From a virus, in UHGV virus genome UHGV-0240820: a DNA stretch of 24,873 bases. One strand, 5' to 3'. The notes beneath the pieces are model-generated. The model was given only the letters and a program-made list of their open reading frames with translations, searched no databases and was not told the DNA's origin. Of this stretch, positions 158 through 23,425 are shown piece by piece; the first letter of the stretch is position 1, and each line of letters opens with the position of its first letter. Made by a program: the position numbers and the translations under genes.

Positions 158-431
158 CCTGCAACTTGCCGTTAAAGGTGAATACTTCGATGCCATGATT
201 CGCGGAGAGAAAACGGAAGAGTATCGCCTGTGTAATGACTACTGGAATAAGCGAATTATGTTCCGCGAGTATGACCGCCTGATTATCACAAAGGGATATC
301 CGAAGCGCGACGATTCCAGCCGCAGAATTGACGTCCCGTATGACGGATATGAAATCAAGACAATCACACATCCGCACTTCGGCGATAAGCCGGCAAAGGT
401 GTTCGCGATAAAGGTGAATATTGATGGCTAA
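150..431 (+). CDS. ASCH-domain-like small protein (93 aa)
   Basis: GTG start at 150 preceded by AGGAGG (138-143). Contains a G-x-K-x-x-E-x-R motif (RGEKTEEYR) characteristic of ASCH/PUA-like domains. Domain call is from memory of the motif. Confidence 0.5.
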   Translation: MANLQLAVKGEYFDAMIRGEKTEEYRLCNDYWNKRIMFREYDRLIITKGYPKRDDSSRRIDVPYDGYEIKTITHPHFGDKPAKVFAIKVNIDG

Positions 432-726
432 ATCAGCAGCAGAGCGCAAAGCCGCTCAGAGAGCCAGACAAGCTGCATCTGGTGTGCGTAAGCTGGAAAT
501 TGTGCTTGATGCTCAGGAAATTGAAATGCTGGAGCGTAACTGTGCCACGCGTCGCCCCGGGCGTGCGCCTTACGAATTTGGTGAGTATATAGCGTTACTG
601 ATCCGCCAGGATGATGCACGCGTGCACGGGCGTATAAAATCGATCAGCAGAAACGTTGCGGTAAGTGCGGCGAGAGAGTTCCCGTTAATTCATGCCCGTG
701 TAATGGTGACTCGGAATGCTGGGTGA
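424..726 (+). CDS. hypothetical small protein; 3' part probably frameshifted (see findings)
   Basis: ATG at 424 with AAGGTGA (411-417) at 6 nt spacing. N-terminal 70 aa look protein-like; the C-terminal 30 aa in this frame do not, while the -1 frame encodes a Cys-rich ribbon-like tail ending at TGA 759-761. Confidence 0.4.
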   Translation: MAKSAAERKAAQRARQAASGVRKLEIVLDAQEIEMLERNCATRRPGRAPYEFGEYIALLIRQDDARVHGRIKSISRNVAVSAAREFPLIHARVMVTRNAG

Positions 727-770: not shown

Positions 771-810
771 AGTAGATTATGCATGATGAATTTGATGGGT
801 TTTGAATACT

Positions 811-837
811 GCCGCCAACTATGGCGGCTTTATTTTG
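811..837 (+). terminator. intrinsic terminator-like hairpin upstream of the terminase genes
   Basis: GCCGCCA (811-817), loop ACTA, TGGCGGC (822-828), followed by TTTATTTTG. Confidence 0.55.
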
Positions 838-842
838 CATGG

Positions 843-862
843 TACTATTACCACAACGGTAA
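843..862 (+). promoter_or_regulatory. -10-like TACTAT abutting dyad TTACCACAACGGTAA (848-862); candidate late promoter/operator
   Basis: Same hexamer-plus-dyad arrangement as at 21184-21203 on the minus strand. Lies 18 bp upstream of the terminase small subunit start. No good -35 element. Confidence 0.4.
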
Positions 863-879
863 CTATTACCACGGTGGTT

Positions 880-1476
880 ATGATGCCTGCTGAACCTAAA
901 ACCTATAAACGCAAATCAACGCAATTTAAGCCACTAACAGCAATGCAGGAGGCTTATTGCCAGTCATACATCAAAACGCCTGAAAACCAGACTCAGGCAG
1001 CGATTAACGCAGGATTCTCCCCAAATACAGCGGCAGTTAAAGCCAGTCTCATGATGCGCGATGAACGCATTCAAAAACGGATTGCCGAGCTGATGGAAGA
1101 GCGCAACAAACGAATGCGCGTCAGTGCTGATTACGTTCTCATGCGCCTGGTGGAGATCGACCAGATGGACGTGATCGACATCCTCAACGACGATGGGAGC
1201 CTTAAGCCAATCCGCGAGTGGCCGAAAATCTGGCGCACTACGCTTAGTGGCTTTGATCTGTCATCGACCATCATGAACATGAACGAGGATTCGATAGAGA
1301 CAATCCTCAAAAAAATTAAATGGCCTGACAAGGTGAAGAACCTCGAACTGATTGGTAAGCACGTCGACGTCAACGCATTCAAAGAACGCCTGGATGTTAA
1401 TGTGAATGTGACAATTGCTGATCGCATAGCGGCAGCCAGGAAGAGACTGAAAGAACGTCAGGATGGCAATCAGTGA
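880..1476 (+). CDS. terminase small subunit
   Basis: Position immediately upstream of, and overlapping (GTGA), the large subunit. Sequence resembles small-terminase families (from memory). Start placed at ATG 880 (or 883, GGTGG at 873-877); the ORF-track start at 802 is rejected because it spans the terminator and the direct repeat. Confidence 0.7.
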   Translation: MMPAEPKTYKRKSTQFKPLTAMQEAYCQSYIKTPENQTQAAINAGFSPNTAAVKASLMMRDERIQKRIAELMEERNKRMRVSADYVLMRLVEIDQMDVIDILNDDGSLKPIREWPKIWRTTLSGFDLSSTIMNMNEDSIETILKKIKWPDKVKNLELIGKHVDVNAFKERLDVNVNVTIADRIAAARKRLKERQDGNQ

Positions 1477-3659: not shown

Positions 3660-3736
3660 TGGCGTGGCATGCAGGATTCGAACCTGCGACCAACCGCTTA
3701 GAAGGCGGTTGCTCTGTCCAACTGAGCTAATGCCAC
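3660..3736 (-). tRNA. tRNA-Arg (anticodon UCU)
   Basis: Minus-strand 77-nt cloverleaf: acceptor GTGGCAT/ATGCCAC, D stem GCTC/GAGC, anticodon stem ACCGC/GCGGT with loop CTTCTAA, T arm GCAGG-TTCGAAT-CCTGC, discriminator G, encoded CCA. Differs from host argU at several positions (from memory), so it is phage-encoded. Confidence 0.85.
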
Positions 3737-4058: not shown

Positions 4059-4073
4059 TTACCTGAAAGGTAA
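4059..4073. promoter_or_regulatory. dyad TTACCTGAAAGGTAA (operator-like)
   Basis: One of six TTACC-N5-GGTAA sites; intergenic. Confidence 0.45.
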
Positions 4074-19191: not shown

Positions 19192-20043
19192 ATGAAAAAA
19201 ATAAATTTGTTTTTTGGCATAGTGCTTTCAATAGTCTCTGTAAATCCTACAGCTGCCAGTTCATTGCAATGCAATAAGGATAACTTTGATGCATGCAAAA
19301 CGTGTGAACAATTATCAAAGGCTATCGACTTAAAAGAACCTAATCGTGGCGATTACTATAGAGGGGCTTTATGGAATGGGCTTTACGCCTCTTATGTAAT
19401 TAATTGCCCTGTGGTTGCTGAGAAGTTACTGAGCCATGGTGCTATACCATCATATGGCGGATATATGGGGTCTATGGGGGCGGTTCTGACAGGAAAATGG
19501 CCTCATAACAATGAATCAATAAATCTTTCATGGGCAGATTTGCTTATAAAACATGGATTTGATGTTAATAGGCATACGGGGAATTATAAATCAGCTACTG
19601 AAGTATGGGCTATAGATAAAAAACAGATTGAATATAAGTCAGTTTTTGACAAGTTAATTCAATCCAGCGAAGTAAAACCACTCGATCCTTCAAGAAATTT
19701 AGAATGGTGTGCGTCTGAAGGGTATCGCTCAGTTGTCGTTTATTCCCTTAACTCATGTATAGAAAATGCTATAAAACGTTTGGATGATGGTGTTTCTTCA
19801 GCGTCTGATATTTCATCAGCAGCCGTAAATTCCTGTACTAGCGATGTAGAAAATTTCAATAAGCATTTGGCATGCAAAGCAGCTGTTAAAGAAAACTCTG
19901 ATAAAGAGAGAAGCGACGTTTACCAGTTATTAACCAGTGATAGTCAAATGAATAAAAATGTTATTGATATGCTGAAGGAAAGAAATATTGAAACGGTTCT
20001 TGAATTTAGAGCTGAAAATCGATCAGCGAAAACTGCACAGTGA
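19192..20043 (+). CDS. secreted protein of unknown function (283 aa, AT-rich moron)
   Basis: N-terminal signal peptide (MKKINLFFGIVLSIVSVNPTAAS), about 10 Cys, AT-rich codon usage unlike the structural genes. Start is 1 nt after the gp16-like stop. Confidence 0.6.
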   Translation: MKKINLFFGIVLSIVSVNPTAASSLQCNKDNFDACKTCEQLSKAIDLKEPNRGDYYRGALWNGLYASYVINCPVVAEKLLSHGAIPSYGGYMGSMGAVLTGKWPHNNESINLSWADLLIKHGFDVNRHTGNYKSATEVWAIDKKQIEYKSVFDKLIQSSEVKPLDPSRNLEWCASEGYRSVVVYSLNSCIENAIKRLDDGVSSASDISSAAVNSCTSDVENFNKHLACKAAVKENSDKERSDVYQLLTSDSQMNKNVIDMLKERNIETVLEFRAENRSAKTAQ

Positions 20044-20049
20044 TCAAAC

Positions 20050-20074
20050 AGGCCGCTTTCGCGGCCTTGTTTTT
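20050..20074 (+). terminator. intrinsic terminator
   Basis: AGGCCGC, loop TTTC, GCGGCCT, followed by TGTTTTT. Confidence 0.75.
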
Positions 20075-20234
20075 AACGAATGCCACCGCCGCCCGGGCGG
20101 GAATCCGCAGAACGCCCACCGCAGCGGGAGCCGTCAGCAGCAGTGTCGCTGTCGTGCTGACAACGACCGGCAAAGGCCTGAGTTGAAGCTACCAGAGACA
20201 ACAAAACGAACAGTGCAGCAAATGCTTTTTTCAT
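20073..20234 (-). CDS. small exported peptide candidate (53 aa)
   Basis: Internal Met of ORF 20073-20306 starts a classic signal peptide (MKKAFAALFVLLSLVASTQAFAG) followed by a 30-aa Gly/Arg/Asp-rich tail with 2 Cys. GC-rich, in contrast to its flanks. Confidence 0.35.
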   Translation of the reverse strand: MKKAFAALFVLLSLVASTQAFAGRCQHDSDTAADGSRCGGRSADSRPGGGGIR

Positions 20235-20315
20235 TGTGAAATTTCCATCTATAAGCCACCTCAATGTGGCGTCAATGAGTGTAGCACTGACTTTTGTTTC
20301 GTCCATAAAAAACTA

Positions 20316-20828
20316 CTATGCAGGCTTTTTGGATTTGTACGAATAATCCCACGGATAAACATTTCTACTAAGTGGAGCTGTATTCGTTCGTTCATGAAAT
20401 AATTTTGTGAAATTCAATACGGAATCCATCCAAACTTTTGCGTTAGCTTTGGTGTGTGCGGGCGGGTCCCAATAAGCTAGTAAGGCTGCATCTCTTATTT
20501 CATTGACTGCATATATGAGATATGCGTTACTGGTTGGTTTTGGCCTGTAATTTCCTTGTTCATCAATCAATCCATATGACCACTCATCCCAACACTGTTC
20601 AGTACATGAGTATGAATATGATGCATATTCACCAATATTGACATGAACCTTTCTGAGATGGAAGCCTAATACTTCGTCTGGTCTTTCAAAAAGAGTATCT
20701 TTTCCCAGATCAGGATGATGACCATGACGCCAGTGTTGTTTAAAAGCATCTTTTAGCGAAATCAGAAAGTCATCAGTTTTAAACTCACCAGTAGGTATAA
20801 CCTTCCCGCTATACTCACTCAAAAACAT
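20316..20828 (-). CDS. hypothetical protein (170 aa); candidate toxin/effector of a two-gene module
   Basis: Strong RBS (AGAGGA at 5 nt spacing). His cluster (HWRHGHH) and a Cys/Trp-rich segment (YSCTEQCWDEW). Start overlaps the upstream gene's 3' end by 14 nt. AT-rich. Confidence 0.55.
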   Translation of the reverse strand: MFLSEYSGKVIPTGEFKTDDFLISLKDAFKQHWRHGHHPDLGKDTLFERPDEVLGFHLRKVHVNIGEYASYSYSCTEQCWDEWSYGLIDEQGNYRPKPTSNAYLIYAVNEIRDAALLAYWDPPAHTKANAKVWMDSVLNFTKLFHERTNTAPLSRNVYPWDYSYKSKKPA

Positions 20829-21141
20829 CGAATTCCTCTTCCTTCATATGCGTTTCTAATGAGTTAAGCTGGCGGAAAGATATCTCTTTTGATTCTGCAG
20901 ATGAGAGCTTTTTTATCCGCTTGATATTCTTTGTGATAGGAATAGACATTGTATGCACATCAGCGGATGCTCTTGGCTTTGTGCTGATAAAAATATGGCG
21001 CAATGCCGCATTTTCACTATTGAACGAGCCAATAGCTGATTTACGTGCTACAACCTTACCAGTAAAAATACGACTCTTGCTACGCTTTGCATGAGTTCCG
21101 CTTCTTACCGGACCTCTCATCACGAATCCAAGTTTTGTCAT
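20815..21141 (-). CDS. hypothetical basic protein (108 aa); candidate partner (antitoxin/regulator?)
   Basis: GGAG RBS. Arg/Lys-rich N-terminal half and acidic C-terminus (HMKEEEFDVFE). First gene of the overlapping pair. Confidence 0.5.
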   Translation of the reverse strand: MTKLGFVMRGPVRSGTHAKRSKSRIFTGKVVARKSAIGSFNSENAALRHIFISTKPRASADVHTMSIPITKNIKRIKKLSSAESKEISFRQLNSLETHMKEEEFDVFE

Positions 21142-21183
21142 CTTTAATCTCCGGTAAGTTACAGGTATAAAATAAAAACAGGT

Positions 21184-21226
21184 TTACCTTTAAGGTAATA
21201 GTACGCTATTCACCCCCGGTCTGCAA
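21184..21226 (-). promoter_or_regulatory. candidate sigma70 promoter with overlapping operator dyad
   Basis: Minus strand: -35 TTGCAG (21221-21226), 17-bp spacer, -10 TACTAT (21198-21203), overlapping dyad TTACCTTTAAGGTAA (21184-21198) by 1 bp. Confidence 0.45.
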
Positions 21227-21270
21227 TCTGTACAGAATTATTTAAAGGCACATCCCTGTGCCGCCGCCCG

Positions 21271-21927: not shown

Positions 21928-22085
21928 GATGGCGTCTCCACTTAGCGAATTACATCACCACCGCTGAGACCAATCAGATGGTGGTGAACTGAACGGAGTT
22001 GGTCTTACCGGCCTAAGTGGTACCGGCGTCCTTTCGGACCCCCATTCAGCCCACCATAATTCTGGCATGACTGTGCTATACGCAT

Positions 22086-22108
22086 AAAAAAACCACGTCT
22101 GGCGTGGT
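22086..22108 (-). terminator. intrinsic terminator-like element (minus strand)
   Basis: On the minus strand: stem ACCACG/CGTGGT (22092-22097 / 22103-22108) followed by a T7 run (plus-strand A-run 22086-22092). Confidence 0.5.
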
Positions 22109-22200
22109 ATGCGCCACTTAGTAATCCGGGAGACCAATCCCGGCACTGGATTTTGCCAGTGCCCGATTACTATGGCACAAGAGGAGTGCGATGTAAATTT
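22086..22200 (-). ncRNA. structured non-coding leader or sRNA candidate
   Basis: No ATG on the minus strand across 22086-22200. Hairpins at 22126-22143 (6 bp) and 22142-22163 (8 bp) share two nucleotides. Ends in a terminator-like hairpin. Confidence 0.3.
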
Positions 22201-22213
22201 ACCGCAAAGGTAA
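22199..22213. promoter_or_regulatory. dyad TTACCGCAAAGGTAA (operator-like)
   Basis: On the minus strand a -10-like TATCAT overlaps the dyad by 1 bp, with TTGATT 17 bp upstream as a candidate -35. Confidence 0.45.
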
Positions 22214-22291: not shown

Positions 22292-22306
22292 TTACCTTTA
22301 AGGTAA
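22292..22306. promoter_or_regulatory. dyad TTACCTTTAAGGTAA (operator-like)
   Basis: Identical to the 21184 site; 21 bp upstream of the ATG of the 242-aa gene; preceded on the plus strand by AGATAT. Confidence 0.45.
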
Positions 22307-22326: not shown

Positions 22327-23055
22327 ATGGAAGTTTTCTGGATAGTTGTTGGTGTGGTTGCGGTGATTATTTACGTTATCAACCAGAACAAGACTAAGAT
22401 CTCTGATCGTACGGTCGTTAATCATAACAAAACGATAAAGACCGAAGATGGGGAGATAACGATTAATCGTACACAGGTGATAGAACACACCTCTACTCAG
22501 TTTCAAAAAACTGGAGGTAATGCGCCTAATATTTCCGCACCTCCTGCTTATGATAGTGCGGTAATCCAGACATATTATAAACAGCAGGAGTTAGCAAAAG
22601 AGAGGCAACTGATTCAGCCAAAGCCATTTACAGCAGAGCTTCCACATGGAGTGTCAACGCGTCCGGCATATCATGGAAGATTCCCTGGTGATGACACATC
22701 GTCTCAGTCACCTAAAAAAGCACCTCAGGCAGTATCAGAGCCAGCAAGAATACCTTCTGTATCGCCGTCAAAAGAAGAATCAGCTAACGAAGTTTCAAGT
22801 GCCCGCAAGCAGTGTTTGCGATGCAGAATAACCCTTCCATATGAAAAATTCAGGAAATCGTCAAAAAATCCAGATGGATTGACTAAGTGGTGTGCAAGGT
22901 GTCTCGATGGCCCAAAGAATACACGCCATATGAAGTGGTGCCCAATTTGTAATGTCCGCAGAAAACGAACCAGTTTTTACCCTAATAATCAAAATGCGGA
23001 TGGCTTAATGGCATGGTGCAAAACGTGCTGGGACGAGCACAAAGCGAAACGATAG
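22327..23055 (+). CDS. membrane-anchored protein with C-terminal tandem zinc-ribbon-like repeats (242 aa)
   Basis: N-terminal TM helix (FWIVVGVVAVIIYVI), Pro/Ser/Gln-rich linker, then two repeats of C-x2-C ... DGL ... WC-x2-C. GAGGA RBS. AT-rich. Followed by a terminator. Confidence 0.6.
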   Translation: MEVFWIVVGVVAVIIYVINQNKTKISDRTVVNHNKTIKTEDGEITINRTQVIEHTSTQFQKTGGNAPNISAPPAYDSAVIQTYYKQQELAKERQLIQPKPFTAELPHGVSTRPAYHGRFPGDDTSSQSPKKAPQAVSEPARIPSVSPSKEESANEVSSARKQCLRCRITLPYEKFRKSSKNPDGLTKWCARCLDGPKNTRHMKWCPICNVRRKRTSFYPNNQNADGLMAWCKTCWDEHKAKR

Positions 23056-23410: not shown

Positions 23411-23425
23411 TTACCCGAAAGGTAA
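23411..23425. promoter_or_regulatory. dyad TTACCCGAAAGGTAA (operator-like)
   Basis: Lies between the divergent antirepressor-paralog and tail-spike starts. Confidence 0.45.

Follow-up and report, generated by a model that had tools for sequence, protein, structure and literature searches.

A YafO-like toxin gene and a putative antitoxin gene in an accessory slot of a phiV10/epsilon15-like phage of Escherichia coli

Organization of the locus

The window analyzed here is the whole 24,873-nt stretch of the virus genome UHGV-0240820, which represents a phiV10/epsilon15-like podophage or prophage of Escherichia coli. On its minus strand lie two small overlapping genes, the first for a 108-aa protein and the second for a 170-aa protein, which probably make up a toxin-antitoxin (TA)-like cassette with a YafO-like toxin. 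A preliminary description, made from the letters of the sequence, had proposed the pair as a candidate TA or abortive-infection module, and its coordinates for the two open reading frames (ORFs) and their 14-nt overlap proved exact. For brevity, we refer to the 170-aa and 108-aa proteins as the toxin and the partner, respectively. The cassette and its upstream region contain the following features.

20316..20828, minus strand: toxin gene, an ORF of 170 aa; divergent member of the YafO family with a RelE/HigB (BECR) fold, putative mRNA endoribonuclease
20815..21141, minus strand: partner gene, an ORF of 108 aa; putative antitoxin of the unnamed family phrog_5933
20818..20919, minus strand: C-terminal module of the partner, RIKKLSSAESKEISFRQLNSLETHMKEEEFDVFE (approximately residues 75-108); putative toxin-binding or neutralizing element
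20815..20838, minus strand: overlap and coupling region, comprising the toxin Shine-Dalgarno sequence, the toxin ATG, and the 14-nt overlap, as read in the sequence
20834-20838, minus strand: toxin Shine-Dalgarno sequence GAGGA, 5 nt upstream of the toxin ATG and within Glu codons of the partner
20826-20828, minus strand: toxin start codon ATG, as read in the sequence
21149..21152, minus strand: partner Shine-Dalgarno sequence GGAG, 7 nt before the partner ATG (21139-21141)
21184..21198, no strand assigned: operator dyad TTACC-N5-GGTAA, TTACCTTAAAGGTAA, abutting the -10 hexamer
21198..21226, minus strand: candidate sigma-70 promoter, with -35 TTGCAG (21221-21226), a 17-nt spacer, and -10 TACTAT (21198-21203)
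21247..21262, minus strand: stem-loop GGCACA-GGGA-TGTGCC immediately behind the stop codon of ant, from sequence and predicted fold

The toxin ATG is composed of a partner Asp codon and the first base of the following Val codon, an arrangement suggesting that the partner is translated first and that translation of the toxin is coupled to it through the 14-nt overlap. The same overlap was found in loci from Serratia and a metagenome and in IMG/VR loci of groups A and B (the groups are those of the partners, described below; the window belongs to group A). Across the group-A loci, a ACCGGAGAT-A-AGATGACAAA block was also kept at the partner ribosome-binding site. In agreement with the AT-richness noted earlier, the G + C content of the cassette was 39.7%, compared with 49.5% for the structural genes. 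We examined a total of 85 loci, five from Serratia and a metagenome and 80 from IMG/VR that were found with a toxin profile. Two small co-directional genes co-occurred in all 85, as expected of a type II TA system, and in every locus a partner ORF on the same strand lay directly upstream of the toxin gene, overlapping or abutting its start. A profile scan of genome contigs gave no confirmed additional toxin loci.

The 170-aa protein is a divergent homologue of YafO

The toxin is a member of phrog_1651, a family of unknown function in PHROGs, and a search of NCBIfam gave nothing useful for it. Residues 36-145 matched the Pfam profile YafO_toxin (PF13957) over profile positions 7-100 of 101 (19.7 bits, E 9.5e-4), and the RefSeq name of the protein is already "type II toxin-antitoxin system YafO family toxin". 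When a shallow profile was compared with YafO of E. coli K-12 by hhalign, the probability was only 8.8%, and therefore a deeper toxin alignment was needed. A family profile of 41 sequences matched YafO with a probability of 95.4% (E 1.7e-8, 108 columns). In addition, 26 of these 41 diverse members matched PF13957 at E <= 0.01 (best 6.8e-23), and one homologue, gp44 of phage TL-2011b, passed the Pfam gathering score with 26.3 bits. Thus, the weak resemblance to YafO-type toxins that had been noticed by eye reflects true homology. The family is small, because an exhaustive HMMER search over 1.84 billion cluster representatives recovered only 54 clusters.

We then compared individual residues. 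Phe29, Gly36, Pro39, Gly42, Asp44, His62, Tyr106, and His125 of the toxin align with the identical residues Phe25, Gly32, Pro35, Gly39, Asp41, His62, Tyr88, and His109 of YafO, respectively, and all of them except Pro39 are invariant or nearly so across the family. In the 41-member alignment, Phe29, Gly42, His62, and His125 are invariant, and Gly36, Asp44, Pro50, Trp80, Ser100, and Tyr106 are nearly invariant. To judge from their conservation in the family and in YafO, the residues His62, His125, Asp44, and Tyr106, as well as the Gly-x-Asp loop, are likely candidates for the active site. Relative to YafO, the toxin has an insertion of approximately 18 residues, which contains Trp80, and a C-terminal extension.

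Structure prediction by AlphaFold2 from a shallow alignment of 10 sequences was unusable (predicted local distance difference test score, pLDDT, of 39) and was superseded by a run with the 41-sequence alignment, which gave a model with a pLDDT of 95.7 and a predicted template modeling score of 0.90. The model has a RelE-like alpha/beta fold of the RelE/HigB type, which places the toxin in the RelE/ParE (BECR) superfamily. A Foldseek search of the model against the PDB yielded no significant match, and PDB sequence searches with the toxin and with YafO found nothing, so that by sequence search the YafO branch of the RelE superfamily is without a solved structure. HigB2 of Vibrio cholerae (HigBA2) and HigB1 of Mycobacterium tuberculosis are ribosome-dependent mRNases of the RelE superfamily, and the toxin is only 11-14% identical to them. 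In higBA modules, the toxin gene comes first and the antitoxin is HigA of the helix-turn-helix type, whereas PF_YafO, one of 13 recognized BECR-fold toxin families, has the order antitoxin then toxin (PMC11980606). YafO itself was described as a translation-dependent mRNA interferase (PMC2814082), and its ribosome dependence was later questioned (PMC8546651).

The conservation data also bear on two other views of this protein. The preliminary description had suggested a metal-dependent enzyme on the basis of a His cluster and a Cys/Trp-rich segment. HWRHGHH (residues 32-38), Cys75, Cys79, Trp80, and Trp83 are indeed present in the sequence, but they are not conserved family-wide; in the 41-member alignment only Trp80 is nearly invariant and His38 is commonly retained, while the cysteines and the other histidines vary. 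The modeled fold is that of the RelE-superfamily ribonucleases (RNases), which to our knowledge do not use metals, and we now consider a metal-dependent enzyme extremely improbable. Another view is that the protein is a decayed or inactive remnant that keeps the RelE-like fold and does not cut RNA, acting for example as a ribosome-binding or structural accessory protein. Its low Pfam score, the insertion and C-terminal extension relative to YafO, and the existence of truncated copies in databases (P0016, P0018, and P0030) would fit this view. However, the invariant residues in a family of 20-30% identity are those conserved in YafO, the nonsynonymous divergence (dN) of the toxin is low (0.15-0.22), and the strict retention of the partner argues that the toxin is dangerous alone. 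An inactive remnant is thus very unlikely. The truncated copies in public assemblies are 136 aa (P0016), 102 aa (P0018), and 86 aa (P0030) long and are 80-98% identical to the toxin over the retained part. At least one of them, P0030, is located on a 4.68-Mb E. coli contig; the contig that carries P0018 has only 585 bp, so that this copy may just be cut off. Some of these shortened toxins may carry the toxin-inactivating mutations that are typical of decaying TA loci.

The partner proteins share a C-terminal module

The partner was assigned to phrog_5933 (1.8e-73), a family of unknown function, and had no significant match in Pfam, NCBIfam, PADLOC, or the PDB. The earlier statement that neither protein could be placed in a family with confidence therefore holds for the partner, but not for the toxin with its RefSeq assignment. 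As previously described, the partner is basic with an acidic tail: its overall isoelectric point (pI) is 10.6, with values of 12.0 for residues 1-78 and 4.5 for the last 30 residues (79-108). The few recognizable homologues show 41-51% identity, and in them the N-terminal MTKLGFVMRG is invariant, the middle is variable, and the C-terminus is conserved. Both the invariance of the N-terminal 10 residues and the conservation of the C-terminal module extend across group A.

The partners from the 85 loci range from 59 to 183 aa and fall into six groups (A-F) whose N-terminal and middle regions are unrelated, although all N-termini are basic. No Pfam domain and no DNA-binding domain was detected in any of the six groups, and the N-terminal regions appear to have been exchanged freely, even inside groups B and D. 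The last approximately 35 residues follow the pattern (K/R)-x-(M/L/I)-(S/T)-x-x-E-x-x-x-(I/L)-S-(R/F)-x-(L/M), after which comes an acidic, aromatic tail whose last residue is usually Glu. With hidden Markov models (HMMs) built by leaving one group out at a time, the partners of the other groups ranked above 3323 decoy ORFs. Because the last eight partner residues overlap the toxin Shine-Dalgarno sequence and ATG, the hhalign comparisons were repeated without them, with the following results.

Groups A and F: probability 92%, E 5.5e-7
Groups C and F: probability 95%, E 3.3e-8
Groups C and D: probability 96%, E 8.9e-9
Groups A and C: probability 75%, E 2.7e-5
Best reversed control: probability 37%, E 3.5e-4

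Since the module is common to otherwise unrelated partners in four of the six groups, we infer that these approximately 30 residues would neutralize the toxin by binding to it, by analogy with many type II antitoxins. The dN of the partner is three to four times that of the toxin, and its ratio of nonsynonymous to synonymous divergence is approximately 0.4-0.6, i.e., below 1. The very basic N-terminal two-thirds of the partner evolve rapidly.

We also considered whether the partner could be a YafN-like antitoxin, since its C-terminal HMKEEEFDVFE resembled DMTDDDFNDFKE of YafN by eye. This candidate was rejected by a shuffle test: with an HMM built from the C-termini of 34 partners, YafN received -1.1 bits, a value reached by 999 of 2000 shuffles, and the partner profile matched YafN by hhalign with an E value of only 0.061 over 29 columns. 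Nor did the partner show a PhdYeFM or any other Pfam match, as would be expected of a cognate antitoxin of the YafN (Phd/YefM) type.

The same observations could be explained if the partner were a co-transcribed nucleic-acid-binding regulator or adaptor, the toxin being otherwise controlled or harmless. Its strongly basic character, particularly in residues 1-78, the lack of similarity to YafN or known antitoxins, and the invariant N-terminal 10 residues in group A are in line with such a role. On the other hand, the two genes co-occur strictly and appear translationally coupled in all 85 loci, the N-terminal regions are swapped freely, and the only element shared among the partners is the C-terminal module encoded next to the toxin gene, which fits toxin binding better. 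We therefore regard a regulator or adaptor as quite unlikely.

The candidate promoter abuts a phage-wide dyad, a probable operator

The cassette had been described as having its own candidate promoter overlapping an operator dyad. The dyad is real and the promoter position is kept in relatives, but the dyad is distributed over the whole phage and is not specific to the cassette. In two related loci (L024 and L026), TTGCAA-17-TATATT occupies the position aligned with the cassette promoter. The register in which the -10 hexamer is followed by the dyad is the same as that of the ant promoter, TTGATT-18-TATCAT (22242-22213), which was called by the consensus scan and likewise abuts a dyad (TATCAT/TACC). 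Upstream of the partner gene, the arms of the dyad are conserved and its 5-nt center is variable in groups A-E, independently of the partner N-terminus. The window contains seven copies, compared with 0.46 expected, and none of 100 shuffled sequences reached seven. Besides the copy at the cassette, they are located as follows.

848-862 and 866-880: tandem copies just before the likely start of the small terminase gene
4059-4073: one copy
22199-22213: one copy, at the ant promoter
22292-22306: one copy, before the gene at 22327
23411-23425: one copy

The complete genome of phiV10 (L090), which has no cassette, contains 14 copies, nearly all in intergenic control regions. Two of them lie in the gap between the repressor gene (p40) and the divergently oriented cro-like gene (p41), and two at the start of the early-left operon; further copies stand before int, the ant leader, terS, and additional transcription units. 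The dyad is also found upstream of an unrelated cassette in EC.W1-9. Judging from these positions, the phages of this group probably use the dyad as their immunity operator. Operators dispersed over the genome in this way are known from C1 of phage P1. We found no description of a TTACC-N5-GGTAA dyad in the literature searched.

A cassette-specific operator was rejected, because the dyad is phage-wide, is present even where the cassette is missing, and shows no co-variation with the partner N-terminus. This lack of co-variation makes autoregulation unlikely, and the partner groups, with no detectable DNA-binding domain and the same dyad in groups A-E, do not look like autoregulating antitoxins. 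Since the dyad is shared with many phage promoters, control is probably exerted by the phage.

Between the ant stop codon and the promoter, the stem-loop at 21247-21262 could separate the ant operon from the cassette as a weak terminator or an RNA-stability element. An equivalent stem in other group-A loci seems, from inspection of the alignment by eye, to be kept by two-sided changes. No known RNA family was detected in the cassette or its leader. A hairpin sequestering the ribosome-binding site was considered from a 9-bp inverted repeat (21104-21112 and 21150-21158) that flanks the partner Shine-Dalgarno sequence and ATG, and was dismissed because it is not conserved in other group-A loci and the fold of the leader has a z-score of -1.15.

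The operator also brings up a different function, namely that the toxin is an RNase of the lytic phase, which would be silenced by the repressor and on induction or infection would degrade the mRNA of the host or a competitor phage, with the 108-aa protein timing or restraining it. The cassette -10 abuts an operator that is also present in the repressor/cro and early-left regions of phiV10 and before the ant, int, and terminase transcription units, and this operator does not follow the partner N-terminus. Moreover, the cassette lies directly downstream of an antirepressor operon controlled by C4 and isrK, and in ZX5, a related phage, the antirepressor homologue promotes lytic growth (PMC9782041). 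However, binding of the repressor to the dyad is deduced solely from position, and a single operator on a weak promoter may permit basal expression in the lysogen. Low-GC accessory genes in variable slots are, in addition, typically morons expressed in the lysogen, and because phiV10 grows without any cassette, the cassette is dispensable for lytic growth. For these reasons a lytic-phase RNase seems unlikely to us.

Proposed mode of action and its standing

Taking these results together, we favor, with more confidence than doubt, a bicistronic type II TA-like cassette in which a YafO-like toxin is neutralized by the C-terminus of its partner and expression is controlled by the phage repressor. 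The YafO homology, the RelE/HigB fold, and the antitoxin-toxin order with overlap support in silico the TA half of the earlier proposal; as for the other half, neither protein nor any of four neighboring proteins matched a defense or abortive-infection model of PADLOC-DB v2 at E <= 1. In the proposed mechanism, the cassette would have been inserted in an accessory slot of a phiV10/epsilon15-like (Uetakevirus-like) prophage, directly downstream of an immI-type antirepressor operon. Transcription would start from a weak promoter of the sigma-70 type, with one copy of the phage-wide operator directly adjoining its -10 hexamer, and expression would most likely be set by the prophage immunity repressor and not by antitoxin autoregulation. 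The partner, made first, would bind the toxin via its conserved C-terminal module, a predicted helix followed by the acidic, aromatic tail. When partner synthesis stops, or the partner is degraded faster than the toxin, the freed toxin would, by analogy with YafO, cleave mRNA, probably on or close to the ribosome, and thereby block translation.

Several observations weigh against this interpretation. The toxin scores below the Pfam gathering threshold for PF13957 (19.7 vs 25 bits), and in the partner no known antitoxin or DNA-binding domain was recognized. Most antitoxins are acidic, unlike the strongly basic partner, and the resemblance of its C-terminus to that of YafN is no better than that of shuffled sequences. 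The shared module is robust only in groups A, C, D, and F, whereas the evidence for it is marginal in group B and falls short of proof in group E (the TL-2011b type), and conservation of the tail may be due in part to the embedded toxin Shine-Dalgarno sequence and start codon. Furthermore, the candidate promoter agrees with the consensus at only 7 of 12 positions and escaped the consensus scan, and the classical type II scheme would include a cassette-specific operator, which is absent here. Because the putative antitoxin is not of the YafN type, the operator is not specific, and the Pfam score is below threshold, we describe the cassette as a variant of the YafO module and not as a plain member.

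Comparison with YafN-YafO of K-12 illustrates this point. The two systems share the order of antitoxin and toxin, small adjacent genes, and homologous toxins with common F, G, G-x-D, H, Y, and H residues, and the translation-blocking mRNA cleavage reported for YafO (PMC2814082) would be expected of the 170-aa toxin by analogy. However, YafO has 132 aa as opposed to 170 aa, yafN and yafO are 2 nt apart whereas the genes here overlap by 14 nt, and YafN is of the Phd/YefM type, to which the partner is unrelated. The K-12 pair is located in the chromosomal dinB-yafN-yafO-yafP cluster, whereas the present cassette is on a prophage behind a phage operator. Phage TL-2011b provides a closer relative, gp45-gp44, in the same slot and with the same dyad upstream. 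Its 181-aa gp44, a homologue of the toxin with 33% identity (E 2e-27), carries the name "YafO family toxin" in RefSeq, but its 59-aa gp45 has no significant similarity to the 108-aa partner, and the C-terminus of gp45 is not demonstrably the same module.

The cassette is a variation within a well-known class and not a new kind of system; the identity of the toxin is already in RefSeq, and no new mechanism is demonstrated. Partner swapping is likewise a known theme in TA biology. If the proposed mode of action is correct, however, the partners would represent a new antitoxin family serving the YafO branch of the RelE superfamily, a branch that has received little study, and a natural case of a short, portable neutralizing peptide fused to interchangeable N-terminal regions. 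The cassette would also be a TA module wired to a temperate-phage immunity operator in place of self-regulation, and would bear on whether prophage TA systems serve the lysogen, through defense or retention, or the lytic programme of the phage. In practical terms, the 108-aa "hypothetical protein" of 69 complete E. coli genomes, and its counterparts in related prophages, would be relabeled as putative antitoxins, and the two variable slots flanking the antirepressor gene would become recognizable as hot spots for cassettes. A bolder version is conceivable, though we would not call it probable: the toxin and partner, gated by the prophage repressor and not autoregulated, would be made together in a burst on induction or infection to shut down translation in the host or of a rival phage, and the partners would form a new modular antitoxin family in which the neutralizing C-terminal peptide of approximately 30 residues is joined to interchangeable, highly basic N-termini with a second function.

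The accessory slot and its relatives

The DNA on both flanks of the cassette matches the phiV10/epsilon15-like group, but for most of the cassette there is no such match. A gene for a small secreted peptide and the AntA/Bro-N antirepressor gene border the slot, the contents of which vary among relatives: it is empty in phiV10 and is occupied in TL-2011b by gp45-gp44. In EC.W1-9 (L002 2929-3730), the slot holds an unrelated overlapping pair encoding a 167-aa DUF2335 predicted membrane protein and a 108-aa protein, and this pair, too, stands behind the same dyad. The exact cassette is present in 69 of 5426 complete E. coli genomes, where RefSeq calls the partner a "hypothetical protein". Among 50,697 phage records, a homologue of the toxin was found only in TL-2011b and EC.W1-9; it was also found in a few plasmids. 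Two E. coli "plasmids" (NZ_CP079771.1 and NZ_CP079768.1, 41,027 bp) carry a YafO family toxin of the TL-2011b type, and their size of approximately 41 kb points to phages of this group that are episomal or have been misassigned. No paper naming these proteins by accession, and none on YafO-like cassettes in this phage group, was found.

Upstream of the cassette, the ant leader (21977-22175, minus strand) contains isrK, the C4 antisense RNA, and its a1/b1 targets, as in the immI region of P1. Rfam models matched isrK at 22086-22162 (67.7 bits) and the C4 antisense RNA at 21977-22061 (61.2 bits), and the c4-a1b1 target element in the leader was below threshold. The P1 immI/Gifsy-1 isrK-type region is thus an upstream neighbor of the cassette, which forms a separate transcription unit set apart by the stem-loop and its own candidate promoter. 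We know of no TA pair in the classical immI region.

On the other side of ant is a second hot spot for cassettes, occupied in the window by a gene (22327-23055, plus strand) for a 242-aa zinc-ribbon protein of phrog_6762, which is Stc1-like and has endonuclease-VII-like CxxC motifs. In E. coli IMT16316 and several IMG/VR phages, this position is instead taken by another YafO-like toxin-partner pair that differs from the first (L091 22102-23041; L016, L041, and L048), and therefore some phages have two paralogous cassettes. The toxin homologue of EC.W1-9 (L002 4988-5903; 46.7% identity) is likewise located on this far side of ant.

Downstream of the toxin, a small gene (20073-20306, minus strand; phrog_3117/14503) is probably co-transcribed with the cassette. 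Translation from an internal start gives a product with a signal-peptide-like N-terminus, MKKAFAALFVLLSLVASTQAFA, and a Gly/Arg-rich tail. Because the gene is also present in TL-2011b and EC.W1-9, we count it among the backbone genes of the phage, outside the cassette. Beyond it, a 283-aa ORF (19192-20043, plus strand) of phrog_6118, a family of unknown function, has the lowest G + C content in the window (36.9%), a signal-peptide- or lipoprotein-like N-terminus, and no Pfam match, and seems to be a further accessory gene, placed where the structural operon ends.

At the other end of the window, a 101-aa ORF (421-726, plus strand) just upstream of the tandem dyads begins with the ribbon-helix-helix-like RKLEIVLDAQEIEMLERN, and its first approximately 76 residues are homologous to the "transcriptional regulator" p55 of phiV10. 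The small-terminase ORF (802-1476, plus strand) opens with a TTG at 802 and, as annotated, contains these dyads, so that its real start is probably an ATG near 881. Finally, a gene for tRNA-Arg (anticodon TCT) is located at 3660-3736 on the minus strand, between the terminase and portal regions.

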